Shown here piece after piece: positions 4,820 through 36,150 of a stretch of DNA of 64,000 bases; the first letter of the stretch is position 1, and each line of letters starts with the position of its first letter. The stretch is from the NCBI GenBank assembly GCA_050951325.1, contig JBMNIW010000007.1:32001-96000 (forward strand), in the 5' to 3' direction. Source of the DNA: Clostridia bacterium (GTDB lineage Bacteria; Bacillota; Clostridia; UBA1212; DUPL01). Under the pieces are notes generated by a model. It searched no databases. It had not been told where the DNA came from and worked only from the letters and a program-made list of their open reading frames with translations. Position numbers and translations under genes: made by a program.

Positions 4820-4912
4820 ATGATCACCTGGAGACAAGTATAACAGAAATATGTTTTATTGTCGATAATATGTGATATAATTGGAAGTGACTATTCTAAA
4901 GAGGTGAATACA

Positions 4913-7618
4913 ATGTCATCGAAAATCCTTATTGGGATTGTATCTATAATCATGCTTGTGTTACTTGCAGGATGCAATGGTGAAAACGTGGAGGATTACC
5001 GAATGATGGACGAAACAAAGTGGGATACATACAGCGATACCTGGGCATGCGTGGATGAGCTTGGCCGCACGGTACCAGGATACGAGGAAGTGGGGCCACG
5101 AAGAGAAGACAGGTATGTAGGCATATTCTACCATCTGTGGCACCACAACACCTTCTATTTAAATGGTGCAGGCGCCTGGGGCAAACAAACCTCCGATGTG
5201 ACAAGGATACTAAGAGAAGATCCTTCTGCCCTTGACAACTACAAATCGCCTTTATGGAGGTCGACAACCCCCTTCTATTGGGGCAAGCCCATATTCGGCT
5301 ACTACGACCTTCAATATGACGATTATGTGCTAAGAAAGCACGCTCAGATGCTTTCTGACATAGGTGTGGACGTCCTGGTTATTGACCTCACAAACTTCAC
5401 AGAAGAAACGCCTTTTTTCTATGATTATGAATCATTGATGCACCTTTGCAAGGTGTTTACGGATATAAGGGAGGATGGCGGCAAAACTCCTCAATTTACA
5501 TGGCTGCTTAGGTGGAACAACCTGGGCGGAGATTATGGCATACGACAGCTGTATAACGACATATACTCAAAGAACCTGTACTCTGATTTATGGTTCATGT
5601 GGGAAGGAAAACCCTTGCTCATAGGAGACAAGAGCTCCCTGGACCCTGTAAAAGACAAGGAAATCATCGACTTCTTCACATGGAGGTCCGCTCACCCTGA
5701 GTATACAGCACCTGACGAGGAAAACGACTGGGCTTGGAACAGTATTTATCCTCAATATCCAGCATACACAAGCACAAATGACAGGGAGGAAGTTGCGGTG
5801 GGCACCGCCCAAAACTGGACGCACGGACTTGCCTTCTTCTCCTCCAGAGATGAAGAGGGCAACTTCATTGCAAGAGGAAGAAGCTACCACAATGGAAAGC
5901 AACCTCTTTTCAAGGACCCAATAAGTAGTGAATACCCATCAAAATATGGGCACAACTTTCAGGAAGGCCTTGACAGAGCACTTGAGATTGATCCAAACTT
6001 CATATTCATAACCGCATGGAATGAGTGGATTGGAGGCAGGTTCAATCCAAACGAGGTTCCCTCCTGGGCAATACAACACAACCAGCCAGCAGGTGGTGCC
6101 TTTTGCGACGGCTACACACCCGAATTTTCAAGAGATATTGAGCCTACTCTGGATGGTGACCTGGGCGACAACTTCTACTACCAGCTGGCTATTGCAATAA
6201 GAAAGTATAAAGGGGTAAGAAGACCGGAAATAGGAAAACCAAAACCAATAATAATTGACGGTAATTTTGATGATTGGAAGGATGTAAGACCCGAATTCAG
6301 AGATGATATGAACGACAAGGCAATAAGAAATGCCAAGTCCCTTGAGAAGAATGTCACATATGTCAATGACACAGGAAGGAACGACTTCAAACTGATGAAG
6401 GTATCCACAGACAAGGACAATGTGTATTTTTATGTTGAAACTGTAGACCATATAACAAGTTACACCGACAAGAACTGGATGCTCTTGTTTATTAAAACTG
6501 ACGATGACAAACCAAACTGGCAGGGTTACAACTTTGTTGTAAACAGAGTAGATGTAAAAGAAAATACAACCACCTTGGAAAAATCATTAGGCAACTGGCA
6601 GTGGGAGACTGTTGCCAGCGACATTAGATATGTAGTTTCAGGCAACAAAATGGAGCTTGCCATACCAAGAAAACAGCTCGGTTTGAAATCAGGAAAAATA
6701 GATATACAGTTCAAATGGCATGACAACATGCAAAACGTAGGAGATGTATATGAATTCATGTTGAATGGAGATGCCGCTCCAAACAACAGATTCAACTACA
6801 GGTATATGGAAGAAGCGGAAAAGTCCTCCTTTACAAGAAACCTCTATACCATAGCAGGAGTAGAAGATTCAATCACATTAAAAAAAGGAGAAAAGATCGC
6901 AATAAGATTTGAAGCTGAATATGATATTGATGGCATGGAAATATTCCTGTCACCTCCAGGCTGGGAAAGTGTTGACAATTCAAGCAGTAAAATAAGATAT
7001 GAAGGGACCTGGGGACAAGCAGAAGAAGTACATTTTTCCAACATAGCAGGTTCTTCTGTTACCTTTGTCTTTACAGGCACGGGAGTAAGGTGGATTGGTG
7101 ACAAGGCTCCGGACAGGGGCATTGTGGAAGTTTACCTGGATGGAAAGCTTGTAGAGGAGGTTGATACGTACGGCACCCAGCTGCTTAAAAAGCAAGTCCT
7201 TTATGAAATCACAGGTCTTGAAAACAAGGAGCATGAACTCAGGATTGTAGTTACGGACAATATGGGAAAGGACTCTGTCGGCACTTACCAATCAGTAGAT
7301 TGTTTTGAATACCTGCCTTCTACCAAATCAGGCAAACAGGGTTTTGAATACCGCCTATACAAATGGAGAAACAGCTACAAAAGCAGCATATCAAAATGGG
7401 CGGTTAAGAAAGGTACCGTTAAAAATGCTGAATTAGGCAAATGGCTGAGCCTAGAAAAGGCAAAACTGGAAAAAGGCGAATATGTGCTTGTTATCGAGAC
7501 AAAGTCTGATCTTTCCATCAATGCCTATGGTTCCAACTACGACAATGTCACGCTTTTTGTTGGTGGAAAGGAGGAAAACGGATGCCTCAAGATACGCGCC
7601 AGATACAAGTCAGCTTGA
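4913..7618 (+). CDS. Lipoprotein: GH99/GH71-like domain, CBM9-like domain and C-terminal beta-sandwich modules (paralogue 1)
   Basis: GAGGTG RBS, lipobox LAGC; WGKPIFGYY, RKHAQML, WNEW, EFSRDIEP, FKWHDN...GDAAP. Confidence 0.7.
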   Translation: MSSKILIGIVSIIMLVLLAGCNGENVEDYRMMDETKWDTYSDTWACVDELGRTVPGYEEVGPRREDRYVGIFYHLWHHNTFYLNGAGAWGKQTSDVTRILREDPSALDNYKSPLWRSTTPFYWGKPIFGYYDLQYDDYVLRKHAQMLSDIGVDVLVIDLTNFTEETPFFYDYESLMHLCKVFTDIREDGGKTPQFTWLLRWNNLGGDYGIRQLYNDIYSKNLYSDLWFMWEGKPLLIGDKSSLDPVKDKEIIDFFTWRSAHPEYTAPDEENDWAWNSIYPQYPAYTSTNDREEVAVGTAQNWTHGLAFFSSRDEEGNFIARGRSYHNGKQPLFKDPISSEYPSKYGHNFQEGLDRALEIDPNFIFITAWNEWIGGRFNPNEVPSWAIQHNQPAGGAFCDGYTPEFSRDIEPTLDGDLGDNFYYQLAIAIRKYKGVRRPEIGKPKPIIIDGNFDDWKDVRPEFRDDMNDKAIRNAKSLEKNVTYVNDTGRNDFKLMKVSTDKDNVYFYVETVDHITSYTDKNWMLLFIKTDDDKPNWQGYNFVVNRVDVKENTTTLEKSLGNWQWETVASDIRYVVSGNKMELAIPRKQLGLKSGKIDIQFKWHDNMQNVGDVYEFMLNGDAAPNNRFNYRYMEEAEKSSFTRNLYTIAGVEDSITLKKGEKIAIRFEAEYDIDGMEIFLSPPGWESVDNSSSKIRYEGTWGQAEEVHFSNIAGSSVTFVFTGTGVRWIGDKAPDRGIVEVYLDGKLVEEVDTYGTQLLKKQVLYEITGLENKEHELRIVVTDNMGKDSVGTYQSVDCFEYLPSTKSGKQGFEYRLYKWRNSYKSSISKWAVKKGTVKNAELGKWLSLEKAKLEKGEYVLVIETKSDLSINAYGSNYDNVTLFVGGKEENGCLKIRARYKSA

Positions 7619-10220: not shown

Positions 10221-10805
10221 ATGAAAAAGTTGCTGCTTCACATATTTCTTTTAATATTTCTTGTAGGATGTGTAAAAATTGAAGACATAACAGTAGAACC
10301 AACACCCTCACCTACAGTGGTTGAAAATCAGAATGAAGAAAACAAGCAGGAGGAGGGCAAGGTAGTCATAACCATCCCGGGAGCTTTTCTTGCATATCAG
10401 GAGGTCATTGATTTTCTCGTAAGTGTAAATACAAAAGGATATATTGAAAGCATTGAAGAAAACTTGGATGGCTCCATAACCTACATCATTACCAAAGAAA
10501 ACTATATTTATATTCTAAGCTTTCTCAAAGTAAATATTATAAATCTATTTGAAGAACTCAAGACAAGCAGTCAGTATCCGTCCATAAAGGATGTGACATA
10601 CAATGAAGATTTTACGAATATAACTTTTTATGTGGCAAAAAAAGACTATGAAAACAGTAAGGATGAGGTAGCATCCTTTGTCATAGCAGCAAAGAGCATG
10701 GTTTACTCCTTTCTTTCAAACAACAACATTGAAATACCGCCTGTAATTGTCAAGATCAAGGACCATGAGACTAAAGAAATATTAAAATCCATCTCCTGGC
10801 CCTAA
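10221..10805 (+). CDS. Hypothetical lipoprotein
   Basis: AGGAG RBS, lipobox LVGC, EPTPSPT linker. Confidence 0.7.
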   Translation: MKKLLLHIFLLIFLVGCVKIEDITVEPTPSPTVVENQNEENKQEEGKVVITIPGAFLAYQEVIDFLVSVNTKGYIESIEENLDGSITYIITKENYIYILSFLKVNIINLFEELKTSSQYPSIKDVTYNEDFTNITFYVAKKDYENSKDEVASFVIAAKSMVYSFLSNNNIEIPPVIVKIKDHETKEILKSISWP

Positions 10806-13318
10806 TTAAAATATTCGTTTGCACTAACTGCGAAATCACCGTCTGTGAAAACGTCGTTAGTCTTAATCTGCATCTGGATGTACCAAAGATCCTTCATAAG
10901 GTGTTCCCTGTCCCTCTCATCTATGGCAAATTCAACACCGTATTCATACAGGTTCTTGTCATGTTCTTTCATCCAGACGGCGTACCCTCTGATATCCAAT
11001 ATTTTTCCTGCCAGGTAGGCAGAAAAATTCATAACCAAATCCCTGCTGACGGGCATTTTCAGATTTGTGACAAAACACAATCCTCCTGCACTGATATTCT
11101 TCACCAATACCTTCGTATTGCCCACATTCAGCTCCTTTCCCTTAAGCTCAAGAATTGTCATGTCTGCAATCAACAAGTTTTTAAACTCCACCCTGAAATA
11201 CTTTCTTTTGTTCTTGTCAGACACAATTGTTGGCTCTTTTGCTTCCGGCCTTACTACTCTCTTCTTCAATATCTTCCTGAACATGTCTTCAGGAAGAGGC
11301 TTGCTGTAGATGTAACCCTGGCCGGTTTTACACTTCAAGTCCTTGAGAAAAACAAGCTGGGGCATTGTTTCAATACCCTCCGCCACCACTTTCAGACTCA
11401 GTTCATGTGCCATGTTGATTATGTGGCGGGTTATAGTTGTGCTTGCATAGTCGGCGCTCAAGTTTTTAATAAAGGAGCTGTCCATTTTTAAAATATCTAT
11501 GTTAAAAGAACTCAAATACGCCAGCGACGAATATCCCGTACCGAAGTCGTCCAAGGCTATCTGAATGCCCGCTTCGCGCAATCTTTTCAAGTCATTAATG
11601 ACCTTCTCGGTATTAACAAGCAAAATGCTTTCAGTAATCTCTATAATTAAGAGATTAGGGTCGAGAGAATGGTCTTCTATTGTTTTAATAATATTTTCGA
11701 CAAAGCGGGATTCAAAGAACTGGACACTTGATATGTTTACACCAACCTTTACAGGTCTCAAGCCATACGAAATCCACTTCTTTATATCCTCGCATACCTT
11801 TTTAAACACCCATCTTCCAATATTCATGATATAACCGGTTTCTTCGGCAATGGGTATGAATTCCATCGGCGATACCATACCCCAGGTTGGATGATCCCAT
11901 CTGATAAGAGCCTCTGCGGCAATTACCCTGTTGGTCTTCAAATCCATTATGGGCTGGTAGTATACCCTGAACTGGTCATTGTCAATGGCTTTGAGCATGT
12001 CTGCGTGTAATTCAAACTGCTTGTATGTTTGCACGTCAATATCCGAGGAATAGAACTTGTATTTGTTCTTCCCCTCATTCTTTGCCCAAAACAGTGCAAT
12101 TTCAGCATGCTTGATTATACTCTCCGCATCGCTGTTATTCTCGTCAAAAAGGCAGATTCCCATGTTTATAGTAACTTCAATATCATATTTATCCACAGTA
12201 AACGAGTTGCTGAATACATTTATTGCCTTCCTAGCCATGGCCTCATAATCACTTATTGATTCCATGTCTGTGACAATGATGGCATATCTGTCTTCGGAAT
12301 AGCGGCAGATATAGTGGTGTTCTCCAAACACATACTTTAGTCTATGGGAAACCTCCACTAAAAGTTTGTCCCCCACATAATGACCTATCGCATCCAGCAT
12401 TCTGTTAAATCTGTCCACCCTGAGCATCATGGTGGCAAATTTATTATTTTCCTTTTTAGCTTCATTGCAAAGTTTGTTCAGGGTTTCCTTTAGGTGAATC
12501 CGGTTTGGAAGACCGGTAAGTTCGTCATGTGTGGATATGTGATGAACCATTTTCTCCATCTCCACCCTTTTGGTTATGTCTCTGAAAGACACAATAAGAC
12601 CGTTCCGGGACTTCTGGTTCACATTGCGTATGACAAGCTCCAGATATATGTTGTCCCCGTTTTTATTTGTATAAAAAAAGGTGCCTTCAGCCTTTTTCTC
12701 AGAACCTTCCGATACTTTTTCAATCATGTACTTTATTTCAATGGAATTTTCCGTGTTGAAAATATCGAATATGCTCTTTCCAAGCAACTCCGAACCATCA
12801 TAACCGATTACCTCTGACAATGATTCGCTTGCATATTTTATCTGACCTTTATCGTTAACCAGAGCAAACATGTCGCAGGATTCCCTTATCAAAAGCTCGT
12901 ATTTTCTTTTGAGCTTGTCCATACCAATGGAATCTTTGCTCTTTGAAGGAATCTGCTCTATTATACCTATTACCCTTACAGGCTTTTTGTATCTATCGAA
13001 TATGGTGAATGTTCTCTCATTGACGTATTTTAGATTACCCTTTGCCGTTACTATCCTGTACTCAATATTATAATCCTCACCGTTAACCGCACCCTGAAGA
13101 GCATTGTTCACACTATCCTTGTCCTCAGTATGTACAAAGGGCAGAAAGCAAAAAAGATCCTTTGAAACAATCTGGTTCGTTTCAAATATATCAAATATCT
13201 CATTGGACAGCTGGAACTCGCCTGTAACAAAATCCTGAGTCCAGCTGCCTGTTTTCATTAAACGGCGGCTGTTTGTGATCTTCATTCTTTTGTTCTGGCC
13301 TTTTTGCCATAAGAGCAT
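10802..13318 (-). CDS. PAS-PAS-GGDEF(degenerate)-EAL-PilZ c-di-GMP phosphodiesterase
   Basis: HDELTGLPNR, YSEDRY in place of GGDEF, EALIRW, DDFGTGYSS, RKYFR...NISAGG. Confidence 0.88.
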   Translation of the reverse strand: MLLWQKGQNKRMKITNSRRLMKTGSWTQDFVTGEFQLSNEIFDIFETNQIVSKDLFCFLPFVHTEDKDSVNNALQGAVNGEDYNIEYRIVTAKGNLKYVNERTFTIFDRYKKPVRVIGIIEQIPSKSKDSIGMDKLKRKYELLIRESCDMFALVNDKGQIKYASESLSEVIGYDGSELLGKSIFDIFNTENSIEIKYMIEKVSEGSEKKAEGTFFYTNKNGDNIYLELVIRNVNQKSRNGLIVSFRDITKRVEMEKMVHHISTHDELTGLPNRIHLKETLNKLCNEAKKENNKFATMMLRVDRFNRMLDAIGHYVGDKLLVEVSHRLKYVFGEHHYICRYSEDRYAIIVTDMESISDYEAMARKAINVFSNSFTVDKYDIEVTINMGICLFDENNSDAESIIKHAEIALFWAKNEGKNKYKFYSSDIDVQTYKQFELHADMLKAIDNDQFRVYYQPIMDLKTNRVIAAEALIRWDHPTWGMVSPMEFIPIAEETGYIMNIGRWVFKKVCEDIKKWISYGLRPVKVGVNISSVQFFESRFVENIIKTIEDHSLDPNLLIIEITESILLVNTEKVINDLKRLREAGIQIALDDFGTGYSSLAYLSSFNIDILKMDSSFIKNLSADYASTTITRHIINMAHELSLKVVAEGIETMPQLVFLKDLKCKTGQGYIYSKPLPEDMFRKILKKRVVRPEAKEPTIVSDKNKRKYFRVEFKNLLIADMTILELKGKELNVGNTKVLVKNISAGGLCFVTNLKMPVSRDLVMNFSAYLAGKILDIRGYAVWMKEHDKNLYEYGVEFAIDERDREHLMKDLWYIQMQIKTNDVFTDGDFAVSANEYFN

Positions 13319-14753: not shown

Positions 14754-15671
14754 ATGGAGAACTTGAAAAAGAAAGCAAAAGAATTGCCTAGTGCACCAGG
14801 GATATATAAATTCCTTGATAAGGATAAGAACATAATATATATCGGTAAAAGCAAGAACCTTAAACAAAGGGTTTCCTCATATTTTCATAAGAAACACAAG
14901 TGGGAAAAGGTAAACAAGATGGTACACCTAATAAATAGTATTGAACACGAAGTGTGCGACACCCATCTTGAAGCAAGGCTGCTTGAATGTCAATTAATCA
15001 AATCCATCAAACCCTGGTTTAACAGCCAGTATAAAAACGACAGAGGATATGTGTATGTGAAAATCGGTGATAATTACAGATACAAACCCTTTTCCATCGT
15101 CTCATCAAGGGTAGATGACTCCTTTGGTCCTTTTAGACGCAGGTACTCCCTTAATGAAACCATGGAAAGAATGCGCCACATTTTCCCCATTTGTGACAAT
15201 TACCAATTCTCATACAACATACTGCCAATTGACATGGACAAGGATACCTTCGATAGAAACAGGCAAACCCTTTTAAAAATATTTGGCAGTGCAAAAGAAA
15301 TGGAAAAATTGATTCTTGCAATTACAAACAAGATGCAATTTTATTCAAATGATATGCAGTATGAAATAGCTGCAAACCTAAGAAATCTTAAAGATGGTTT
15401 AAGTATAATAAACAAGGTGCTTTACAGCCATGAGGATATATTGTCAAAAGATATAATTCTCAAAATTCCCATAAACAGTGGCTACAAACTTTTTTATGTA
15501 AAGTCCGGGTTAGTTGTAAACTGCGGTAATAACAAGGATTTAAATGATTTTTTAGCCGATTCAAAGGATAAAAAAACAGAGTTCTGCGATGAGAAGTCCC
15601 GTATGGATTTTAGGGACATACTCCTTTCAGAGCTTAACACGCTTTCTGAAGAATGCATAATTTACGTATAA
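14754..15671 (+). CDS. UvrC N-terminal/Cho-like GIY-YIG endonuclease
   Basis: PGIYKF, IYIGKSKNLKQRVSSYF, EARLLE, UVR-like YEIAANLRN; no UvrC C-terminal half. Confidence 0.8.
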   Translation: MENLKKKAKELPSAPGIYKFLDKDKNIIYIGKSKNLKQRVSSYFHKKHKWEKVNKMVHLINSIEHEVCDTHLEARLLECQLIKSIKPWFNSQYKNDRGYVYVKIGDNYRYKPFSIVSSRVDDSFGPFRRRYSLNETMERMRHIFPICDNYQFSYNILPIDMDKDTFDRNRQTLLKIFGSAKEMEKLILAITNKMQFYSNDMQYEIAANLRNLKDGLSIINKVLYSHEDILSKDIILKIPINSGYKLFYVKSGLVVNCGNNKDLNDFLADSKDKKTEFCDEKSRMDFRDILLSELNTLSEECIIYV

Positions 15672-17000: not shown

Positions 17001-17898
17001 ATGAAAGCTTATAGTTACATAAAAACATTCACCTGTGTTTTCTGCATTCTCATGCTTGTCATACTAATGGGATGCAACAGAAACGATATTCATATAGGAG
17101 ATCTGCCTCCTGAATATCAGGCGAATGTGACGGGCAATATCACAGTATCATATCCCATGCATATATATATCCTGGGGACCCAACCTAATACCTTTCCTTG
17201 AAGGCTGGGGCGGAAAATGGTTTGACGATGTTAACAAGAAAGTCTTGTTTGTAAGTGATGAGAAAGTATTGAAAGGTTTTTCCGAGCTTGTTGGAGTTAT
17301 TGACGACGGTCTTGTACGTCCTGATGGAGTAAGTGGCAACTTCATGTCCAAATATGCAAAACTGAATGTAGAAGACACCGTATTCAGGGCAGGAGTTTTC
17401 CCTGGTCTTTATCAGGCAGGATTGGAATATCAGTCCAAGGGTGTAAACTGGAATATAGCAAACTGGCCACGATTCCCTGTTCATAGAGTAGGAACGGGAG
17501 CCACAGGTTTTGGAGTATACAACAGAACAAAAAGACCCGATACGGCCGCTGCTTTCTGTCTGTTTCTTTTTACAGACGAAGGACAAAGGGCATATCATGA
17601 ACAGGTAGGCGGTTCTGTTCCCCTTACTAAAAACTTGGCTATGGAAGATTTCTGGAGAATACCATGGCCAAAAGACAAAATTAACTACGACGCCTTCATC
17701 AGTTATCCAGAGGCTGATACAGTTGGTAAATTTCAATGCAGATTGCCAGACTCAGTCGCCAGCATAATTTTAAGCAGAATCAACAATGTATTCGAAGCCC
17801 ACCTTTCAGGAAGAACAGACTACAAAGACAGTTTGGGAGAGATTGAGAAACTAGCTACTGAAAAATGGGAGACCCTGTTTGAAGGTGAAAGAACATGA
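17001..17898 (+). pseudogene. ABC sugar-binding lipoprotein with internal deletion and frameshift
   Basis: Lipobox LMGC and NITVSYP in one frame; frame changes at the ATATATATAT tract near 17161 to YISWGPNLIPFLEGWGGKWFD and the SBP C-terminal half. Confidence 0.75.
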
Positions 17899-17925
17899 AT
17901 GAAGGAGCCTTACGGCTCCTTCATT
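17898..17925. terminator. Hairpin between convergent genes
   Basis: AATGAAGGAGCC-ttac-GGCTCCTTCATT. Confidence 0.75.
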
Positions 17926-20900
17926 ATCTTCTCTCTGCAAGTTTTATAGTAATACTTGACTGCCTCTCCAGTTGTTTCAGAGCATCCACAACAGCATCAC
18001 CAACACGGTCTTTAGTACCCTTGTTGTTAAGTCTTTCCAGGTCTCTAAAGAGTACTCTTGAAAACATGGCTCTTAGACGAATATTCTCTTCAAACAAATC
18101 TTTGGAGTCATGAAGAGCTTCAAAAAAGTCGTCTCTTCTGTCATGCTCTATTCCCATAAGAGCGTTTTCCGCATTTGCCTGAGAGGCAAATACTCCAACC
18201 TTCCAGAAATCTTCTTTCTGAGCATCCACATTGGAAGGAATACCGCCATAATATTTATTAAGTATCTTCTGCCCTTCCACAGACTGTGAAAACCCAATCA
18301 GTTTCGCAGCCAGATTCTTCTTTTTGCTTGAATCCACCATGGCAAAACCATGAATAAAGTCCGTATTGCTTGCTCCCACATCTCCTTCAGGGAATTTTGG
18401 CAACGGCAGAATCAATAGATTATTATCCTTTGCAAGTTCTTCAGCATAATTTGCAGGATTCCTCATTAGTTCCTCCTCTGAAAGGAAATACATCCCGTTT
18501 CTGTCAGGTTGACTTGCAAAGGCAAAGGACATTCCGCATTTTGCATTCAAACTGTTCTTGGCATCAAATCCGTTTGCCTGAGCGTATCCTCTATTCAAAA
18601 GCATGAACATACTAGATAAACCTTCAAAGCTTTTGCCCTGTGTAAGGACAAGATCCAAATTATCCTCATCAAACCACTCTCCGCCAAAGCCCCGTACAAA
18701 CTGCATCCATACAAAGGCCTGGTGATATGGCAGATATACTCCGGTGTAGGACTTTGAGTTCTTTTTCTGTGTAAGTGCTTCTACCGTTTCTACAAAATCC
18801 TCATAAGTCCAATTGCTGTCTGGTACCTTGACACCAAGTTCTTCGAAAACGTTCAAGTCACACAATACAACAGCTCTGTCGTAATTGAACGGAACCCACT
18901 GAAGAGAGGTGCCCACCTTTCCTAAAGACAGTGCGGATTCAACCATCTTTTCGCCTTTAATACCGTGTTTTTCAAGGTCTGCAAACTGAGGACCCTTTTC
19001 TTTGCCGTAATATTTTGGATCCCTCATATACTCAAGAGCACTGTCGGCAGGTATTAATACCACATCTCCAGAAAGCTTTGCTGGAAAATCTTTCACAAAC
19101 TCAACCCTTACACCAACACCCTTGTTCTCTTTCTTGAAGGCATCAATGAATTCAACAAGAGTCTCTTTGAGTTTATCCATGTCAGCATCAGGTGAAATAT
19201 CTTCCCTTACAACCAAAGTTATCGTCTTCCTTTTGGAAGCTTCCGTTTCCTCAATTACATTTTCTCCACCTTCTTCAGGTTCCCGTTTTCTTCCGAAAAA
19301 ATGCAGCGATGATGCAATTGCCGCAATAGCAACAAGCAATATGACAGCGGAAATAATAATTCCTTTTTGCTGCATTTTAAGCAATACAACAGCTATTGCA
19401 ACAAGGGCAACAACACCAATGCCTAATGCGCCTATAACTCCGTAATTGATTTTAGAAGCTCTTGTCTCTTCCTTTTCAACAATATTTCCATCTTTCTTTA
19501 CGTATCTGAAGTTGAATCTTGAGTCAGGAGCTGCATCACCCAAATCCATGAACTGCATAACATCGCCCTCAGTGGTGGAGTTATCCGCCCATTTGAAATC
19601 AAAGTTGTCTCTCTTTTCAAGACCAACCAGGTTGTTTGGCACACATATAACCATCCTGTTGCCTTCCACCTTGTACTCTGCCTTGCCAACTTCCTCAAAC
19701 TCCCAACCACCGCCTGCAAATCTCTCTATGGTTGCGTACTTGTCGTCTCTACTTCTGTTGATTATATAATCATAACCTTCCCAACCTGTTTCATGGTTCT
19801 GGTCCACGTCCAGGAAAAGGTTCATCCAGTTCTCTCCGTCATCAAAAACAATATCATTCACACAGGAAACAAAGAAGTATGTCTTGTCATCCAATTTCGA
19901 AACTTTGGCATACTCTATGTCATTTCTTCCTGTATCGTTGGTATAGTGATAAGTTCCTGTAACGGATCTGTGGTTCCTGTGGGTGATGTCGTGCGTTATG
20001 TCTCTAAACTCAGGTTGAACCTTGCCCCACTTGTCCAAATCAACAGAAAGTCCCATATCATGGCTGCCTTCACCCAAAGGCAGTTCATCCATGCCCTTGA
20101 AAAGCCTTATGTAGTGGCAGAGTTGGTAGTAGAAATTGTCTCCAAAGAAACCATCAATAGGCTCAATATCCCTTGAGAATTCCACACTGAAACAGTCCAC
20201 AAAAACTTTACCAAATTGAAGGTCACCTACTACTGTGCTGTAAGTGCCTGCCACAGGCCATGATGGTGTATTGGAAGTTACCTCTGACCCTCCGTTTGTA
20301 AACTCGTTCCACCCTGTAACCATTATGACTTTTGGATCAAGCTCAAGGGCTCTTTCCCACTGTTCCTTGAAAGCAAGACCGTATTTCGTCTCTTCAAGAG
20401 AATATCCAAAGTCCTTCTTTCCATTTGATATCTGCTCTCCCTGTACAAAGCTTCTCCCTCTTGATGTGGAAGCGTGAAAACCTGCGGATACTGCCACCTG
20501 CTCTATTTCCCCACTTTTATTCTTACCGGGAACCTGAGGCCATTCTGCAATCCAGGGCCACCTGTCAACACCACCGTCATCTTCCGTCCATGTGTTGAAA
20601 GCCCAGCTGCGCTTGATTGTAAAGAAATCCTTCTGCTCGCCGCTTATATTTTTCGGGTTTCCAAAGATTAATGGTTTTCCTTCCCACATAAACCATAAAT
20701 TCTTGTATTTTCCTGGAGCATATATCTCCGACCATAAAACACCCAAATGGCTTTGCATCCTTTCAGGAGCATCGCCACAGTGGAAAACTATCTGGGGAGT
20801 GACTCCACCCTCGTCCCTTATCCCCTGCCATACTCTGAACAAAGTCTTCCAGGCAGACTGATACATATTTGGATTGGTTATGTCAAGGAACACAAAATCA

Positions 20901-21304
20901 ACACCTGCCGCAACAAGCATTTGAGCATGCTTTCTATACACCCATTCATCCTGGTTTTCGTAATAGCCGAAATATGGTTTTGCCCAAATATCTATGCCGT
21001 CTCTTACAAGGGCTTCCCAAACGCCTTCCTTGCCACTTGACTGGTAGATAAAACTCTTGTCGTTTAACCGTCTTCCTGCATAAGACGTGTCCATGAAAAG
21101 AAAATAGAAGATGCCTACGTACTTTTCCTTTTTCTTTTTACCTGCTTCCTTTTGTGTTGCCACTTTTCGCCCAAGACCGTCTGTTGCTACCCATGTTTTA
21201 GTAACACCCGAAAGATCGGATTGTGTTTTCGCCTGTCCCGAAACACCAAATGCGGGTATGGAATATATGAGAATAAACATAAAAGCAAAAATTTTTCTTA
21301 ACAT
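17924..21304 (-). CDS. GH99/GH71-like and CBM9-like domains fused via two TM helices to an ABC solute-binding domain (paralogue 2)
   Basis: Signal peptide; WAKPYFGYY, WNEF, EFSRDIEP, FKWADN; two hydrophobic helices; then VPFNYD...FEELGVKVPDSNWTYEDF, a family-1 SBP pattern. Confidence 0.72.
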   Translation of the reverse strand: MLRKIFAFMFILIYSIPAFGVSGQAKTQSDLSGVTKTWVATDGLGRKVATQKEAGKKKKEKYVGIFYFLFMDTSYAGRRLNDKSFIYQSSGKEGVWEALVRDGIDIWAKPYFGYYENQDEWVYRKHAQMLVAAGVDFVFLDITNPNMYQSAWKTLFRVWQGIRDEGGVTPQIVFHCGDAPERMQSHLGVLWSEIYAPGKYKNLWFMWEGKPLIFGNPKNISGEQKDFFTIKRSWAFNTWTEDDGGVDRWPWIAEWPQVPGKNKSGEIEQVAVSAGFHASTSRGRSFVQGEQISNGKKDFGYSLEETKYGLAFKEQWERALELDPKVIMVTGWNEFTNGGSEVTSNTPSWPVAGTYSTVVGDLQFGKVFVDCFSVEFSRDIEPIDGFFGDNFYYQLCHYIRLFKGMDELPLGEGSHDMGLSVDLDKWGKVQPEFRDITHDITHRNHRSVTGTYHYTNDTGRNDIEYAKVSKLDDKTYFFVSCVNDIVFDDGENWMNLFLDVDQNHETGWEGYDYIINRSRDDKYATIERFAGGGWEFEEVGKAEYKVEGNRMVICVPNNLVGLEKRDNFDFKWADNSTTEGDVMQFMDLGDAAPDSRFNFRYVKKDGNIVEKEETRASKINYGVIGALGIGVVALVAIAVVLLKMQQKGIIISAVILLVAIAAIASSLHFFGRKREPEEGGENVIEETEASKRKTITLVVREDISPDADMDKLKETLVEFIDAFKKENKGVGVRVEFVKDFPAKLSGDVVLIPADSALEYMRDPKYYGKEKGPQFADLEKHGIKGEKMVESALSLGKVGTSLQWVPFNYDRAVVLCDLNVFEELGVKVPDSNWTYEDFVETVEALTQKKNSKSYTGVYLPYHQAFVWMQFVRGFGGEWFDEDNLDLVLTQGKSFEGLSSMFMLLNRGYAQANGFDAKNSLNAKCGMSFAFASQPDRNGMYFLSEEELMRNPANYAEELAKDNNLLILPLPKFPEGDVGASNTDFIHGFAMVDSSKKKNLAAKLIGFSQSVEGQKILNKYYGGIPSNVDAQKEDFWKVGVFASQANAENALMGIEHDRRDDFFEALHDSKDLFEENIRLRAMFSRVLFRDLERLNNKGTKDRVGDAVVDALKQLERQSSITIKLAERR

Positions 21305-21423
21305 GAGCTACTCCTTTCCTGTAATAAATGTTAATATAGTATATCATAAATATTAATTGCGCAGGCTAATGAATTAAATGATAAAATATAATATAATTGT
21401 TAAAAAGGCATATGGAGGTTAAA

Positions 21424-23409
21424 ATGAACGCAAGAAGAATACTGTGCTCCCTTGTGCTTGTGGCATTAAGCCTGGCCATTATGGGTGTTTCCGGCATGGA
21501 AGAGGATTACAATATTGAACTTGTAAAACCAGATACATGGGTGGCAACCGATGGCCTTGGCAGAACCTTGTCAGGCTACAAGCAGGTGGGCCCAGAGAGG
21601 AAAGACAGGTATGTAGGAATGTTCTACTGGACCTGGCACGCTTCCCACGCAGAAGACAACTTGCCAAGAAATGTACAGCAAATACTTGACTCACTGGATC
21701 CTGACGAAGCTCAAAAAGCCCAAAACGACTATCACCATCCAGTTTGGGCGGACTATACGGGCTACCATTTCTGGAACGAGCCCATTTTTGGTTACTACTC
21801 CACCACGGACAAGTACGTTCTAAGAAAACATGCCGAAATGCTGGCAGACGCAGGAGTGGATGTAATATTCTTTGACTGCACAAATGCCGCCCACCTGTGG
21901 AGAGAGTCATACATGGCTCTTCTTGAAACTTTCTCGGAAGCAAGGAAACAGGGAGTAAAAACACCTCAAATATCTTTTATGCTGAACTTCGGACCAATGC
22001 CCTCAACCACAATTATGCTGGAGAAATTGTACGAAGATTTATACAAGGACGGCAAATACAAGGACTTGTGGTTTTACTGGGATGGAAAACCTTTAATAAT
22101 GGCCCATCCAGACGGACTGCATCCATTTTCGGATAACCACAATGAAATATTGGAGTTCTTCACTTTCAGACGCAACGAAGCCTCGTATTTCACCAGGGCT
22201 TACGGCATGGGATACTGGGGCTGGCTCTCCATATATCCACAAGGCAAATTCGGCGTTGACAACGACGGCAATGTGGAGCAAATGACTGTTGGAGTTGCTC
22301 AGAATGCAACAGAGGAGTTCCTCACTGCCATGAATGGCAAAAACGTCCTTGGAAGAAGCTATACTTCTGGTGACTACTATTACACATATAAATACAAGAA
22401 TAAGAAAATAAAAGTTGACAAGAATATCGAAAACTCAAAACTCTACGGGCTTAATTTCCAACAACAGTGGGATTACGCCATCAAAAACGACCCTGAATTC
22501 ATATTCGTCACTGGCTGGAATGAATGGGTTGCTTTAAGATTTTCAGAGTGGCAGGGTGTTGAAAACGCATTCCCGGATCAGTTTAACGATGAGTATTCAA
22601 GAGATATAGAGCCATCAAAAGGAGACTTGAAAGACCACTACTATTATCAACTGGTGGAAAACATACGTAGATTCAAAGGTGTAAGCAAGCCTGAAAAGCT
22701 TAACGCAAAGAAAACGATAGACATATTCGGCTCTCTTGACCAGTGGGACGAAATAACTCCATTCTACCACTACACCCAAAACACATGGGACAGAGACCAC
22801 AATGGATATAAAGGCACACATTACACAAACAAAACGATGAGGAATGACATAAGGGTGGCAAAAGTAAGTTTTGATAGAAAGAACATATACTTTTACGTGG
22901 AAACCGTCGACAAACTTACTTCCCATAAGGACCGCGGCTGGATGAGGCTTTTTATCGACACCAGGAAGGCAACGAAAAACTCAAAAGACTGGGAAGAGAT
23001 TGAGTATGTGGTTAACAGAATCAACCCGACAGACCAAGTGGCGTATGTTGAAAAAAGCAAAGGCGGTTGGAATTGGGAGGTCGTTGCAGAAGTTAAATAC
23101 TCTGTAAAGGATAATGTACTGCAACTAGAGATACCTAGAAAAGTTCTTGGTCTTAATTCTTTAGGGGATCCTGTTTTTAACTTCAAGTGGGCGGATAACA
23201 ACTGTCTGAATGGGGACATCTTTACCTTTTACACAGACGGAGATGCCGCTCCCGGTGGAAGGTTCATGTTCCACTTCAATACAAACCAGGGATTAAGTAC
23301 AATTGCCACAGCAATAATTACCATATCAGTTCTTGCTGTTGCAATTGTTTCAACACTGCTCACAACTAGAAAAAAAAGAAAAGAAAGGAGTCATAAAAGT
23401 GAGTTTTAG
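21424..23409 (+). CDS. GH99/GH71-like and CBM9-like protein with C-terminal membrane anchor (paralogue 3)
   Basis: GGAGG RBS, signal peptide, WNEPIFGYY, WNEW, EYSRDIEP, C-terminal TM helix then RKKRK. Confidence 0.72.
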   Translation: MNARRILCSLVLVALSLAIMGVSGMEEDYNIELVKPDTWVATDGLGRTLSGYKQVGPERKDRYVGMFYWTWHASHAEDNLPRNVQQILDSLDPDEAQKAQNDYHHPVWADYTGYHFWNEPIFGYYSTTDKYVLRKHAEMLADAGVDVIFFDCTNAAHLWRESYMALLETFSEARKQGVKTPQISFMLNFGPMPSTTIMLEKLYEDLYKDGKYKDLWFYWDGKPLIMAHPDGLHPFSDNHNEILEFFTFRRNEASYFTRAYGMGYWGWLSIYPQGKFGVDNDGNVEQMTVGVAQNATEEFLTAMNGKNVLGRSYTSGDYYYTYKYKNKKIKVDKNIENSKLYGLNFQQQWDYAIKNDPEFIFVTGWNEWVALRFSEWQGVENAFPDQFNDEYSRDIEPSKGDLKDHYYYQLVENIRRFKGVSKPEKLNAKKTIDIFGSLDQWDEITPFYHYTQNTWDRDHNGYKGTHYTNKTMRNDIRVAKVSFDRKNIYFYVETVDKLTSHKDRGWMRLFIDTRKATKNSKDWEEIEYVVNRINPTDQVAYVEKSKGGWNWEVVAEVKYSVKDNVLQLEIPRKVLGLNSLGDPVFNFKWADNNCLNGDIFTFYTDGDAAPGGRFMFHFNTNQGLSTIATAIITISVLAVAIVSTLLTTRKKRKERSHKSEF

Positions 23410-25201
23410 GAAATTTACCACATTGTTATCATGCCTTTTACTCCCTTTAAGCATAACGGCAGGATGTACAAATGTATTGAAAAAAACCGTGGATGCCTAT
23501 AGTGTAAATGAAGGCAGAAACTTTAACTACTTATGCGGAGTAGACCAATTCGGGAGGATTTTTGAACCTGTTACAGGCATGAATGAAGAAAAACATGTAG
23601 GCATGTTCTATTTTTTATGGCATGGCGAATCAGGAGTCACAACGCATAATATTACTCAGCTTCTTAAAGAAGATCCGGATGCTTTGTTTGATGTAAAAGG
23701 CTCGAGCAAAAGCCCATTGAATGCTTTCCACTACTGGGACGAACCCATATTTGGCTATTACCGTTCGGATGACAAATGGGTAATTGCAAGACACTGCGAG
23801 CTTCTTTCACAAGCAGGTATTGATTTTCTTGTGTTCGACACCACCAACGCCTTTATTTACGAGAAATCCTACACTGCCCTTCTGGAAGTATTCTCAGAAT
23901 ACCAGGAAAGAGGCTGGAATGTACCCAAAATCGCATTTTACACCAATTCCATGTCCATTAGGACCATGAACCAATTGTACGAAAAACTCTACAGCAAAGG
24001 CCTTTACAAAGAACTTTGGTACTGTCCGGACGGTGAAAGACCCCTAATCATTGGCGCATTAAATGCAGAACATGACAAGAAGATATATAACAATCCAAGT
24101 TACAACCCACCAGAGCTGACAGAAGAGTTTTTAAACTTCTTTGATTTAAGAAGTACGCAGTGGCCCTTTGACCCATTCATACCTGACGGATTCCCCTGGA
24201 TGGAGTGGCTGTATCCACAACCAAATCACAACGGTATTATGAATGTTTCTCTTGCCCAGCATCCGCAACTCCCCTTCAGCAACTCCTACTTCAACAGAAA
24301 CCTTAACAAGGGAAGAGGATACGACTTTGATAAAAAGGAAAACATTGAATCCGAATATGCAAAAGGATTAAATGCCCAGTATCAGTGGAATACAGTGCAC
24401 AAGAACGCAAAAGACGTTCATACAGTATTTGTAACCGGGTGGAACGAATGGATTGCTCAAAAGCTTAATTTGAGCGGAGCTATTGGTTTTGTCGACTGCT
24501 TCAATGAAGAGTTTTCAAGAGATATAGAACCTTCAAAGAACGGAACGTATCAGGATGCATTTATCATCCAACTTATTCAGAACGTACGCAAGTTTAAAGG
24601 GTTGAATGAGAAATTCAAAGCTCCTGACAAGGCAACCATAGATATTAAAGGCGATGTATCCCAGTGGGATAAAATAAGGAATACGTATATTAATATTTCT
24701 GAGACAGAAACAGGAAGAGACAGTAATTCAGTTGACTTCAAGTACAAGTATGTACAGGAAAAACCAAGGAATATTATAAAAGAGGTGAAAATCACCCACG
24801 ACAAGAATAATGCATACATCATGATAAAATGCGTAGACGATATAATAAGTGATACGGACGAAAACTGGATGAATGTCTTTATTGGCACCAATGATGTGAA
24901 ACTGCAGGGTTGGGAATGCTACAACTATGTTATTGGAAGAAGTGTTGATGGAGACAAAATCGCCCTTAACACACTTGATGAAAACGGCAGCGCAACCAAG
25001 GTTGCTGATGCAAGGTTTTCAATAAAGGGCGATGTCATGCAGATTGAAGTAAAACTTAAGGATCTTGGTCTTAAGACAAAAGACAAAGGCTTTTACTTCA
25101 AGGTAGCAGATGGCGTTGAGAACTATGAAGACATTATGGACTACTATGTAACAGGCGAAAGCTTCCCAATGGGCCGTCTAAGCTATTACTACTACTTCTA
25201 A
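23399..25201 (+). CDS. GH99/GH71-like and CBM9-like lipoprotein (paralogue 4)
   Basis: AAAGGAG then GTG at 23399; lipobox TAGC; WDEPIFGYY, WNEW, EFSRDIEP. Confidence 0.72.
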   Translation: MSFRKFTTLLSCLLLPLSITAGCTNVLKKTVDAYSVNEGRNFNYLCGVDQFGRIFEPVTGMNEEKHVGMFYFLWHGESGVTTHNITQLLKEDPDALFDVKGSSKSPLNAFHYWDEPIFGYYRSDDKWVIARHCELLSQAGIDFLVFDTTNAFIYEKSYTALLEVFSEYQERGWNVPKIAFYTNSMSIRTMNQLYEKLYSKGLYKELWYCPDGERPLIIGALNAEHDKKIYNNPSYNPPELTEEFLNFFDLRSTQWPFDPFIPDGFPWMEWLYPQPNHNGIMNVSLAQHPQLPFSNSYFNRNLNKGRGYDFDKKENIESEYAKGLNAQYQWNTVHKNAKDVHTVFVTGWNEWIAQKLNLSGAIGFVDCFNEEFSRDIEPSKNGTYQDAFIIQLIQNVRKFKGLNEKFKAPDKATIDIKGDVSQWDKIRNTYINISETETGRDSNSVDFKYKYVQEKPRNIIKEVKITHDKNNAYIMIKCVDDIISDTDENWMNVFIGTNDVKLQGWECYNYVIGRSVDGDKIALNTLDENGSATKVADARFSIKGDVMQIEVKLKDLGLKTKDKGFYFKVADGVENYEDIMDYYVTGESFPMGRLSYYYYF

Positions 25202-27292: not shown

Positions 27293-28516
27293 TTAATATA
27301 TTGAAAATGCTATATTAGGATTACCTTCTGCTTTTAATATTCTTAAGCGAATCCTTTTTATATACATAGGGGATATTCTATCTATCTTCTTATGGCCGAC
27401 TGCAGTTCCATGAGCTAATTCTACCCAAGAGCCATCGTCTTCTGACTCAACTATGTATTCTTTTACTAGCTCACCCTCCGATATATCTTCCATAAGCACT
27501 ATGTGGGATATTTCAGTAGATTCTTCTAGGTATATTTCAAGCTCTTCTCCTCTTCCTTGTGTTTCACCTAAAGTATTTGAAAAGGTTTTCTCAATCCATT
27601 CTCCGAACTCTTTTACCCTTAAGGTATCACATTCAGGAAGTAAGCCCCTGTTATCGGGTGCTACATTCAGTAGAAGATTTGCTCCGTGACCAACTGAGTG
27701 ATAATATATGTTTTTCAGTTCATCTAAAGATAGTAGGCTAGCTTCATCCTCAGGATGCCAGAACCAATGCAACTTTCTGATAGGTACGTCACATTCAGCA
27801 GGTACCCAGTCCCGAGTTTCAGGTAACCAGGTAAGCATATCATTTGTAACCATAGTTTTTTTAGCTTCTTTTACTGTATTCCAGCAGGGGTATGGCGCAG
27901 TTCCTTCTTCATTGCCTACCCATCTTATTGTTGGTATTCCCATATTGAATATCATTGCATCAGGCTGATATTTATTTACTATTCCAATAATTCTTCTCCA
28001 ATCATATTCACGTCCATTAGAGCCAGCCCCATCAAACCATAATTCAAATAACTCACCATATCCGGTGACCAATTCAGTTAATTGCTTTACATAAAACTCA
28101 TCATATGCCTCTTTATCTGAATAACAAGGTTCATGTCTATCCCATGGAGATAGGTATACGCCAAAATGCATTCCTAGCTCTCGACAGGCTTTTGCACATT
28201 CTGCTACAACATCACCCTTTCCTTCTTTCCAGGGACTTGATTTTACTGAGTAGGATGTAGTATCTGTTTGCCATAAACAAAAACCATCATGATGCTTTGC
28301 TGTCAGTATAAAATACTTAAATCCGGCCTCTTTTGCAGTTTTTATCCACTCATAGGCATTAAGTTGCTGCGGATTGAACAAGGTTGGTGAGTCTTCACCT
28401 TCTCCCCATTCTCGGTTACAAAATGTGTTAAGTCCGAAATGACAAAACATTCCCATTTCTAAGTCCTGCCATCTCTTTTGAGCTTCTGTTGGCTTTGCTA
28501 ATTCACTTTGCTTCAT
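27293..28516 (-). CDS. Alpha-L-fucosidase, GH29
   Basis: MFCHFG, LTAKHHDGFCLW, YLSPWD, WFDGA, RWVGNE. Confidence 0.92.
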   Translation of the reverse strand: MKQSELAKPTEAQKRWQDLEMGMFCHFGLNTFCNREWGEGEDSPTLFNPQQLNAYEWIKTAKEAGFKYFILTAKHHDGFCLWQTDTTSYSVKSSPWKEGKGDVVAECAKACRELGMHFGVYLSPWDRHEPCYSDKEAYDEFYVKQLTELVTGYGELFELWFDGAGSNGREYDWRRIIGIVNKYQPDAMIFNMGIPTIRWVGNEEGTAPYPCWNTVKEAKKTMVTNDMLTWLPETRDWVPAECDVPIRKLHWFWHPEDEASLLSLDELKNIYYHSVGHGANLLLNVAPDNRGLLPECDTLRVKEFGEWIEKTFSNTLGETQGRGEELEIYLEESTEISHIVLMEDISEGELVKEYIVESEDDGSWVELAHGTAVGHKKIDRISPMYIKRIRLRILKAEGNPNIAFSIY

Positions 28517-28527
28517 AGTACCTCCTC

Positions 28528-29478
28528 TTATCCTCTTCGCATACATGAGTTTAGTTCTTTTTCTAACTCCTCAAGCGTACATTTATTTTTTATGTAACAT
28601 TGATTTCCATCCATACAATATTCAAATGTGTTAGAACCATCTTCTTTTATAAACGCCTTACCATTGTTTGATATGCTATAGTATTCTCCTTCTCCTTCAA
28701 ACGCAAAATGTACTGCAGTTAAATCCCAACAATTATTTTCTCTTGGTTTTTCAGGCCATCTTCCGTTTATGTACAGGTTGTATGAATGATATACAGGGTT
28801 GCTCTGCCAGTTCCCTGGTATATAACCATTGAAACCTGTCTTAAATCGTTTACCGAACTCATGACCTGAGTAAAACACAGGTACAGGACAGTTATCAAAA
28901 ACACCCTTTGCTGCAGCTACAGCCATTTTCACATTCCAATCAAGTCCTTCAGGAAATTCACAGGCTACTGATACTATTGAATATACTTTCTTTTTAACAA
29001 GCTCTCGTCCTGTTAAATCTGAGTAGGAGTCCGCTTTACTTTCAAATAGATCATACAAAGTAGTAAGTGGTCCTATGGTGATAATTATAGTGCTGTTATC
29101 CTCTGCATTTGCGAGTATTTTTCTGTAGAGCTCAACTGCGCCATACACCTTGAGAGTTTTACTCATATATCTCTCAGAGAAATGTTCTGACAAAAATTTA
29201 TTATAAAAGATGCTTTCTGCTAAAAAGTCTTTCTTCTCATACTGTCCTACAGGTACATCTGGGTAACCGCAGAAACAGCTAAGTGCATCTATTGCGCCTG
29301 AACCATAATCATTTGATGTACAGTTTATAATACCAGCCACTGGTATATTATATCGCTCCGCAAGTGTGTACAGCGTTGCGATAGCACCTACGTCATCTAC
29401 ATCAGGTCCTATATCTGTATCTAATATTACACTCCTTCTATAATCTTTTAATGGTTGAAATTTAATATCATTTGTCAT
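28528..29478 (-). CDS. Nucleoside hydrolase (IU-NH) fold protein
   Basis: VILDTDIGPDVDDVGA, IGPLT, DWN. Confidence 0.8.
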   Translation of the reverse strand: MTNDIKFQPLKDYRRSVILDTDIGPDVDDVGAIATLYTLAERYNIPVAGIINCTSNDYGSGAIDALSCFCGYPDVPVGQYEKKDFLAESIFYNKFLSEHFSERYMSKTLKVYGAVELYRKILANAEDNSTIIITIGPLTTLYDLFESKADSYSDLTGRELVKKKVYSIVSVACEFPEGLDWNVKMAVAAAKGVFDNCPVPVFYSGHEFGKRFKTGFNGYIPGNWQSNPVYHSYNLYINGRWPEKPRENNCWDLTAVHFAFEGEGEYYSISNNGKAFIKEDGSNTFEYCMDGNQCYIKNKCTLEELEKELNSCMRRG

Positions 29479-29488
29479 AATGCACCTC

Positions 29489-36150
<6,662 letters not shown>

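Follow-up and report, generated by a model that had tools for sequence, protein, structure and literature searches.

The fused gene and its parts

We analyzed a 64,000-nt stretch of a Clostridia bacterium genome (contig JBMNIW010000007.1, positions 32,001 to 96,000; hereafter 'the window'). Positions 17924 to 21304 of the window carry one gene; its product joins an enzyme-like module, related to glycoside hydrolase (GH) families GH99 and GH71, to a solute-binding protein (SBP) domain of the ATP-binding cassette (ABC) transporter type through two transmembrane (TM) helices. We saw a single unbroken open reading frame (ORF) of 1126 amino acids (aa), protein P0001, as the initial annotation had reported; the coding strand is the minus strand, and the plus strand across 17924–21304 is riddled with stops. 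The ATG at 21304 is preceded by a strong ribosome-binding site (RBS), GGAAAGGAG (21319–21311), with a spacer of 6 nt. The parts of the gene are as follows.

17924..21304, minus strand: whole ORF, 1126 aa, stop within the coordinates (identical cluster P0002; orthologues P0003, P0004, P0005)
21311..21319, minus strand: RBS GGAAAGGAG, 6 nt ahead of the ATG (read directly)
21233..21304, minus strand: N-terminal signal peptide, aa 1 to ∼24 (hydropathy peak; putative cleavage site)
20090..21211, minus strand: predicted (beta/alpha)8 barrel related to GH99/GH71, aa ∼32–405, with invariant E334 in GWNEF (AlphaFold model, Foldseek, VIA-align, profile matches, dyad analysis)
19490..20080, minus strand: predicted beta-sandwich, aa ∼409–605, DOMON/ethylbenzene-dehydrogenase-gamma-like (model residues 382–578 versus 2ivf_C)
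19379..19441, minus strand: TM1, aa 622–642, counterpart of the C-terminal membrane anchor in stand-alone relatives (hydropathy; in the alignment, stand-alone forms end just past this helix)
19361..19378, minus strand: putative cytoplasmic loop KMQQKG, aa 643–648, with in-frame M644 lacking an RBS (sequence read)
19295..19360, minus strand: TM2, aa 649–670, at the lipoprotein signal peptide position of stand-alone SBPs, lipobox Cys lost (hydropathy; 11/11 stand-alone SBPs with lipobox-type Cys)
19205..19294, minus strand: linker, aa 671–700, GRKR and then an acidic stretch (sequence; hydropathy scan)
17927..19204, minus strand: family-1 (SBP_bac_1/SBP_bac_8) oligosaccharide-type SBP domain, aa ∼701–1126 (Pfam; structure model; Foldseek match to CbpB)

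Reality and conservation of the fusion

Four full-length clusters that share the SBP Pfam domains came out of a homologue search: P0002 (100% identical to P0001; the window's own cluster, with 28 member sequences), P0003 (87%), P0004 (61%) and P0005 (45%). P0005 is a second intact fused gene of 1100 aa, located on contig C2 of the same genome (G000); paralogues in this genome, at 45–47% identity, retain the same frame and architecture. Thus, the search for full-length homologues proposed in the initial annotation ended with four fused clusters at 45–100% identity.

The junction sequence (window positions 18800–19900) was present complete in 14 sequencing runs from seven studies; the labels of the runs (bioreactor, landfill, sludge and anaerobic-digester metagenomes) point to an engineered anaerobic habitat for the host organism. 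Contigs from four runs of four studies were compared with window positions 17800–21400. A single contig covered this entire interval in run X1 (no differences) and in run X11 (one substitution); the contigs of runs X2 (17800–21246) and X8 (18068–20662) bridged the TM region with no differences. None of the four runs' contigs had an indel. The runs should not all be counted as independent, as one or more may be the assembly's own source. Misassembly, about which the initial annotation had asked for a read-level check at the junction, is excluded as the source of the fusion: contigs from four studies cross this place without indels. The fusion is real and conserved. The same annotation had considered that homologues could always be two genes and the junction faulty; in relatives outside this lineage we did find two genes, in the opposite order; the junction nevertheless holds up and neither helix is missing.

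The enzyme-like module

The N-terminus is hydrophobic, with a peak of 1.97 in a Kyte–Doolittle (KD) scan, which bears out the signal peptide of the initial annotation. The remainder of the module was modeled with AlphaFold (AF2; aa 28–620, from a 35-sequence alignment) with high confidence (predicted local distance difference test, pLDDT, 91; predicted template modeling score, pTM, 0.93). Top Foldseek matches of the model were GH71 and GH99 chains (probability 1.0, identity 9–15%). In the VIA-align comparison with 48,161 representative chains the best match was human MANEA (GH99, 6zdc_A; Z 18.8, root-mean-square deviation (rmsd) 3.6, 262 residues aligned); 5ngw, an unnamed 'glycoside hydrolase-like protein', had Z 17.0, GH71 chains had Z 15.7 and 15.4 (9fnf_A, Z 15.7, model range 29–591), and generic TIM-barrel hydrolases were clearly lower (Z ≤ 12.2). 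The full-length Foldseek superposition on GH71 had an rmsd of ∼18; barrel and beta-sandwich are both in the model, but with that figure a GH71-like placement of the sandwich, or its homology to the GH71 sandwich, is no more than tentative.

At the sequence level, a profile of the 35-member family searched against the PDB reached BtGH99 (E 1.7e-9), MANEA (3.6e-7) and BxGH99 (∼5e-6); no GH chain in the PDB was matched when a single sequence or a 9-sequence profile served as the query. The Pfam model Glyco_hydro_99 (PF16317) was matched by 11/35 family members on their own (best E 2.4e-6). There was no sequence-level match to GH71 chains in the profile searches; the chains labeled 'family 71' there were BxGH99 entries. 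Motifs common to the module and GH99 are P-x-x-G-x-Y-x-x-x-D...RKH and N-E-W at the first catalytic Glu. Since the profile reaches GH99 chains and 11 members match Glyco_hydro_99, the term 'GH99-like', used in the initial annotation, is right as a statement of homology; it holds at the level of fold (MANEA and Foldseek matches) as well as of profile (BtGH99), the sequence evidence coming from the family and not from P0001 by itself.

A catalytic dyad D/E-x-x-E is given as common to GH99 and GH71 in PMC12394665; the GH99 form is E-x-x-E (BxGH99 E333/E336) and the GH71 form is D-x-x-E. In the HMMER alignment the GH99 motif N-E-W-H-E-G sits over N-E-F-T-N-G of the module. The first Glu of the dyad (E334) is invariant, in 35/35 family members and 46/46 genome copies. 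The GH71 pattern is absent: the first position holds Glu instead of Asp and the second is never acidic. With only the first Glu of the dyad kept, the module appears as a relative, not a member, of GH99/GH71. The glycoside hydrolase role read into the domain by the initial annotation goes beyond the evidence; as the second catalytic acid of GH99/GH71 is absent, this role is one that we infer. Further acids are invariant in the module, D136, D141, D370, D379, E381 and D389; these might be candidates for the function of the missing second acid.

For the sandwich, the sole sandwich-only match listed by VIA-align was the gamma subunit of ethylbenzene dehydrogenase (2ivf_C; Z 10.4, 167 residues aligned), a fold that the DOMON superfamily unites with carbohydrate-binding module family 9 (CBM9). 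The structure search matched no CBM9 chain, and no Pfam CBM9 match was obtained for aa 419–620 or for any of the 35 members. Of the 'CBM9-like' domain of the initial annotation, the beta-sandwich is supported by its match to 2ivf_C; kinship with CBM9 is a possibility at the level of a DOMON-type fold.

The SBP half and the membrane hairpin

Both Pfam models of the family matched aa 712–1035 above the cut-off (SBP_bac_8, 37.5 bits with cut-off 27; SBP_bac_1, 34 bits with cut-off 26). The AF2 model of aa 702–1124 had pLDDT 88.6. Its best Foldseek match was CbpB with cello-oligosaccharides (E 2e-15, TM-score 0.66–0.70); next came GacH, MalE3, Lmo0181, a sophoro-oligosaccharide binder and YesO, at 13–16% identity, and more than 500 SBP chains were matched at E ≤ 1e-3. 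The sequence relation to Lmo0181 and YesO is distant (E ∼1e-3). The modeled SBP fold is complete, with two lobes, and closest to oligosaccharide-binding ABC receptors; the family-1 SBP domain of the initial annotation is thus confirmed by sequence models and by predicted fold.

The KD scan placed two strong peaks between the halves, TM1 (2.95) and TM2 (2.81), with KMQQKG in between; the linker after TM2 starts with GRKR and is then acidic (7 D/E in 15). Both helices, the loop and the acidic linker had been described correctly from the start. The loop is basic in 4/4 fused forms. It holds the in-frame M644, a Met kept in 3/4 fused forms and absent in P0004; there is no Shine–Dalgarno sequence ahead of M644 in P0001 nor at the equivalent place in the paralogue. 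There is no Cys after TM2 and, therefore, no lipobox on the SBP part. Absence of an RBS with a start at the junction and of a lipobox, both noted in the initial annotation, are in agreement with these observations.

An out-in-out hairpin with both ectodomains outside the cell, proposed there as well, is the most coherent reading of the topology, since the loop is basic in all four forms, both halves are of exported ancestry (stand-alone SBP orthologues are lipoproteins) and a complex of the two halves is predicted; the topology is itself a prediction.

A split gene pair in relatives and the history of the fusion

The SBP subfamily was found in 17/45 genomes of the same order: in G000 and in 16/25 genomes of a sister family, f5. 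Among scored genomes of the class it occurred in 8/398, namely G000 and 7/9 sampled f5 genomes. The f5 SBP is always a stand-alone ORF of ∼464–540 aa; in 11/11 loci this gene is directly followed by a module gene on the same strand, and a twelfth SBP–module pair is present at G026:C8. In six extended f5 loci the intergenic gap was −7 to +21 nt. All SBPs at these loci (11/11) have a lipobox-type Cys after a hydrophobic stretch; being lipoproteins, these stand-alone orthologues should be extracellular. The module gene of the sister family codes for an enzyme-like protein with one C-terminal TM anchor.

These pairs clarify the parts of the hairpin. In stand-alone module relatives the chain stops right behind a single TM helix with its basic tail; fused forms go on into a second helix and the SBP. 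TM2 lies at the exact spot of the SBP lipoprotein signal peptide, in the same succession of basic residues, hydrophobic stretch and mature domain starting from a conserved T-I-x-L-x-V. As both halves occur as separate linked genes in other genomes and both cluster with those pairs in trees, the gene is a Rosetta-stone fusion; its halves go back to two genes long and closely coupled, in a partnership that predates the fusion.

In the module tree, all modules that go with an SBP grouped together, separate from the unpaired paralogues, in a clade with support 94/97. Stand-alone genes fell between the two fused lineages (84/81 in the module tree, 86–87 in the SBP tree), and the lineages were not sisters in either tree: the C7 fused group sat with the stand-alone G026:C8 (84/81), the C2 fused gene with G026:C22 and G043 (SH-aLRT 86). 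A single fused clade was not rejected by approximately unbiased (AU) tests, with p values of 0.111 and 0.153. The fusion may have happened once or, independently, twice: the trees split the lineages, but the AU tests allow a single origin. Since the gene order in relatives is the reverse of the fused domain order, simple loss of a stop codon or read-through does not explain the fusion, and a rearrangement or tandem duplication would be needed; neither has left a trace that we could find.

A broken CUT1-type SBP gene lies immediately downstream of the fused gene, on the plus strand (∼17016–17153 and 17167–17889). Its C-terminal part shares 66% identity with the SBP encoded at C6:36728–38092 of G000; the N-terminal piece is in another frame, and aa ∼51–209 are missing. 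We asked whether this SBP-like ORF could be left over from the event that made the fusion, and rejected the idea, as it is a broken copy from a different SBP subfamily.

In the sister family the pair is flanked by proteins of 366–414 aa with a signal peptide, a C-terminal TM anchor and no Pfam family (L021:6627–7784 and 11436–12554; L024:10292–11536; L026:11199–13461; L023:3651–4841). Such anchored neighbours were not found beside the fused gene; G000 has paralogues of them elsewhere (C3, C6, C12, C1). The AraC gene beside the fused gene is 35% identical to the AraC of a sister locus, and closer paralogues are elsewhere in G000.

Spread of the module family

An exhaustive phmmer search of 1.84 billion representatives returned 2623 proteins at E ≤ 1e-3, of which 889 had E ≤ 1e-30; with that many homologues the feature is far beyond chance. 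Nearly all matches were confined to aa ∼35–603, within many architectures; the full length was covered by the P0003 cluster alone. Neighbours of the module in the atlas were all 'hypothetical protein' clusters without a Pfam family. The taxa include Clostridia, Bacteroidota, Verrucomicrobiota, Planctomycetota, Armatimonadota and others; cultured Bacteroidota carriers are Dyadobacter, Chitinophaga, Pedobacter and Mucilaginibacter.

In two of the three Bacteroidota loci inspected the module gene is directly beside SusC/SusD pairs. These are the loci of Chitinophaga silvatica (L050:8962–19015) and of Dyadobacter sp. CY343, with two tandem module copies (L058:2111–12795); in Mucilaginibacter (L045:5906–10683) the module gene adjoins a sulfatase gene and a gene of a formylglycine-generating enzyme (FGE)-type maturase. 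Both kinds of neighbourhood fit a glycan-processing role of the module.

Within G000 (3.08 Mb), a hidden Markov model (HMM) of the module matched 57 ORFs at E ≤ 1e-10, 41 of them with >80% of the module. About half of the copies finish with a single TM helix followed by a basic tail; the SBP is present on two only. The window holds four copies: the fused gene and the plus-strand genes 4859–7618, 21397–23409 and 23333–25201, the last two being divergent neighbours of the fused gene.

Other or reverse-order fusions were sought among longer proteins with limited sensitivity (P0005 was missed), and P0002–P0004 only were returned. In 80 loci kept from representative genomes there was no match beyond residue 681. 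A search of the literature, mostly outside subscription journals, found no description of this architecture or module family, in line with the statement in the initial annotation that no such protein was known to it.

Predicted complex and proposed function

The module (aa 36–604) and the SBP (aa 702–1124), each given as an alignment, were submitted to complex modeling in three runs with three controls. An ipSAE of 0.90 was obtained in 3/3 runs; the best of three controls had 0.00. There were 80–86 contacts, with partner pLDDT 90–91. The pass mark was reached by 116/157 solved complexes and by 2/215 mismatched pairs, counts that are rough for the present case as custom alignments were used. 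To our knowledge, no complex of this kind has been solved which the model might have memorised. Contacts on the module side are aa 77–102, 294–302, 362–363 and 450–452; judged from their position after beta-strands, 294–302 and 362–363 are probably on the catalytic face of the barrel. On the SBP side the contacts involve long C-terminal helices (aa 1072–1091, 1112–1115) and segments elsewhere in the domain.

We consider it probable that the fused protein is a hard-wired surface pair of enzyme and SBP, in which the SBP binds the glycan handled by the module or its product. The protein would be one membrane-anchored surface molecule with two ectodomains, a GH99/GH71-related barrel with a beta-sandwich and an oligosaccharide-type SBP, joined by the two-helix hairpin. 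The hairpin would have been built of pre-existing parts, with TM1 being the module's own C-terminal anchor and TM2 the former SBP lipoprotein signal peptide without its Cys. The fusion would thus hard-wire an older partnership of a lipoprotein SBP and a TM-anchored module encoded by adjacent genes. In this scheme the module may cut a polysaccharide at the cell surface, the tethered SBP may bind the same glycan or an oligosaccharide product next to the enzyme, and the ligand might then be passed on to an ABC permease whose genes lie elsewhere. Catalysis, ligand and import are inferred, and topology and complex are predicted.

Several observations weigh against this reading. The second dyad position is acidic in 0/35 family members and 0/46 genome copies, being mostly Ala, which leaves catalysis by the module unproven; P0001 itself has no Pfam GH match, its first 620 residues being blank even at E ≤ 10. 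Direct binding of module and SBP is supported by the model and not by measurement, and the module's interface residues are less conserved than the rest (0.35 versus 0.53 identity in paired copies); this is so in unpaired copies too, making the conservation test weak support at most. The TM2 of P0005 is weaker, under the KD threshold of 1.6, and the GRKR right after TM2 of P0001 runs counter to the positive-inside rule. Relatives have the SBP gene first and the module gene second, opposite to the order of the domains in the fused protein. No permease gene (PF00528) is near either fused gene, the nearest being at a distance of ∼26 kb on C7 and of ∼13 kb on C2, and no PF00528 match was present on any of six pair-bearing contigs (9–84.5 kb) in five sister genomes. 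Given this absence near the fused loci and on the sister contigs, 'capture for import' is unproven, and the 'cut-and-capture' of the initial annotation, taken as a step of ABC import, is left with no genetic backing.

What the SBP does with its ligand is the point on which the more serious alternatives differ. A narrower version of the reading just given adds import: the SBP would take the enzyme's oligosaccharide product to a CUT1-type ABC permease elsewhere in the genome, which is a real possibility, though we would not expect it. The SBP has a complete fold, and its nearest structural matches are bona fide ABC receptors (CbpB, GacH, MalE3, Lmo0181, YesO); the PF00528 search of G000 gave 13 permease matches, with CUT1 permease pairs on C4, C8 (two) and C11, and sharing of SBPs is plausible because at the C8 locus three SBP genes are beside permease pairs. 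A cytoplasmic step is hinted at by AraC-type regulators with cupin domains which adjoin the pair in several loci; in one locus the neighbour is a DUF4838 protein whose N-terminus has no obvious signal peptide and which is apparently cytoplasmic. The module genes beside SusC/SusD import genes in Bacteroidota are on the same side of the balance. Absence of a permease in cis is unusual for CUT1 SBPs; here it is absent from 8/8 loci (two fused, six split), and the predicted interface with the module occupies several SBP segments and the long C-terminal helices. That same lack of permease linkage at the loci checked would be natural if the SBP were a dedicated non-transport subunit of the enzyme, either a targeting or binding module, as a CBM is, or a ligand-gated regulator. 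SBPs are known to serve sensors (LuxP–LuxQ), and an SBP-like domain modulates MltF. The order-restricted distribution of the SBP subfamily (8/398 genomes of the class), with a module gene adjoining at every locus inspected, and the high-confidence predicted complex speak for such a subunit; so does the fusion, which fixes a 1:1 stoichiometry, a sensible arrangement for an obligate partner. We nevertheless regard this as rather unlikely: regulation has no direct evidence, a hairpin with a cytoplasmic loop of six residues is unable to signal inward, and the full two-lobe fold is equally compatible with transport. Its most elaborate form, quite speculative in our view, is that an ABC-type SBP was captured as a permanent non-transport subunit by a new GH99/GH71-related surface enzyme family that works without the canonical dyad, its open or closed state gating or feeding the enzyme, and that strong selection for this led to fusion, possibly twice.

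Two further alternatives concern the polypeptide itself. The chain could be processed after insertion, with TM2 still acting as a cleavable signal, so that the enzyme stays TM-anchored and the SBP is either free or held by the enzyme, or the SBP could be translated separately from M644. The segment from M644 is indeed laid out as the n-region and h-region of a signal peptide (M644-QQKG-hydrophobic stretch-AIASS), with the Met in three of the four fused forms; yet neither paralogue has a Shine–Dalgarno sequence there, P0004 lacks the Met, a lipobox is absent and, as we reason, an SBP released from a monoderm cell would be lost unless bound by the enzyme. We find this improbable. An artefact or a decaying gene (a misassembled join, a gene pair masked by a frameshift, or a single true helix leaving a non-functional SBP in the cytoplasm) might be suspected from the only moderately hydrophobic TM2 of P0005 and from the broken SBP gene immediately downstream; it is hardly credible given concordant contigs of four studies without indels, retention of frame and architecture in two paralogues at 45–47% identity and confident fold models for both halves, and the downstream fragment is from another SBP subfamily, being 66% identical to the C6 SBP. 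The hard-wired pair of enzyme and SBP remains the reading we prefer.

Other genes of the window

Several other genes of the window attracted our attention:

10802–13318, minus strand: 838-aa PAS-PAS-GGDEF-EAL-PilZ protein, by its domains an enzyme of cyclic di-GMP turnover with a built-in PilZ receptor domain
14754–15671, plus strand: short 305-aa UvrC-like protein with GIY-YIG and UVR domains only, like the N-terminal half of UvrC or Cho
29489–33856, minus strand: 1455-aa protein of the GH2 beta-galactosidase type, with a GDSL esterase domain at its C-terminus
39991–41667, plus strand: DDE transposase
46703–47836, plus strand: IS91-type Y2 transposase
47914–50153, plus strand: IS21-type pair, a Mu-like transposase and an IstB ATPase

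The GH2–GDSL gene belongs to a run (27293–39495) with GH95, GH29 fucosidase and DUF4838 genes, whose content suggests breakdown of fucosylated, acetylated glycans. The three mobile elements are close to one another.

Comparison with known systems

SBPs are usually treated as parts of transporters; here, at the loci inspected, an SBP subfamily is always beside a surface-enzyme gene and never beside a permease gene. If the complex prediction holds, the pair would be a testable case of Gram-positive glycan degraders linking cleavage with binding at the membrane, analogous to the Sus paradigm. The fusion labels a partner and a likely glycan-related role for a very large unannotated module family; being related to GH99/GH71 and yet different in its catalytic make-up, this family is a candidate for a new CAZy family. 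If the hairpin indeed arose from the anchor at the module's C-terminus and the signal peptide of a former lipoprotein, it would illustrate how two exported proteins can fuse without losing topology.

Substrate-binding domains fused to ABC permeases are known from proteins of the GlnPQ and OpuA type. The SBP domain is there, as here, covalently tethered at the membrane surface rather than free or a lipoprotein; the partner in P0001 is an extracellular enzyme-like module, and the ORF has no BPD_transp_1. In MltF a family-3 SBP-like domain is joined directly to a lytic transglycosylase with no membrane hairpin. Both proteins unite an SBP fold and a domain of glycan-cleaving type in one polypeptide outside the cytoplasmic membrane, but MltF has another enzyme fold, a peptidoglycan substrate and no hairpin. 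With the Cluster-D/CUT1 oligosaccharide SBPs (CbpB, Lmo0181, YesO, MalE) the SBP half shares SBP_bac_1 and SBP_bac_8 above cut-off and the two-lobe fold; unlike them it is only 13–16% identical to its structural matches, has no permease genes nearby and no signal peptide or lipobox of its own, and is TM-tethered to an enzyme-like module which it is predicted to bind.

The module itself resembles GH99, the endo-alpha-1,2-mannosidases/mannanases (BtGH99, BxGH99, human MANEA), in its barrel, in profile homology (E 1.7e-9) and in motifs; it differs in that the family is without the second Glu of E-x-x-E and has an extra C-terminal beta-sandwich, and P0001 is under every Pfam threshold. The GH71 alpha-1,3-glucanases (AnGH71C, Agn1p) share the barrel fold (Z 15.4–15.7) and are among top Foldseek matches. 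A barrel with a packed beta-sandwich is the GH71 layout described in PMC12394665; on that description the module appears to have the same two-domain layout, a likeness that need not mean homology of the sandwiches, and it is without the D-x-x-E dyad.

In the Sus-like systems of Bacteroidota, as in the present case, a glycan cutter is genetically coupled to a surface glycan binder, and the same module family adjoins SusC/SusD in Chitinophaga and Dyadobacter; the binder has the SusD fold there and the SBP fold here, the envelopes differ, and Bacteroidota lack a fused form. The fused protein is, therefore, not a new category: it combines known kinds, a Rosetta-stone fusion, a membrane-tethered SBP and a GH99/GH71 relative.

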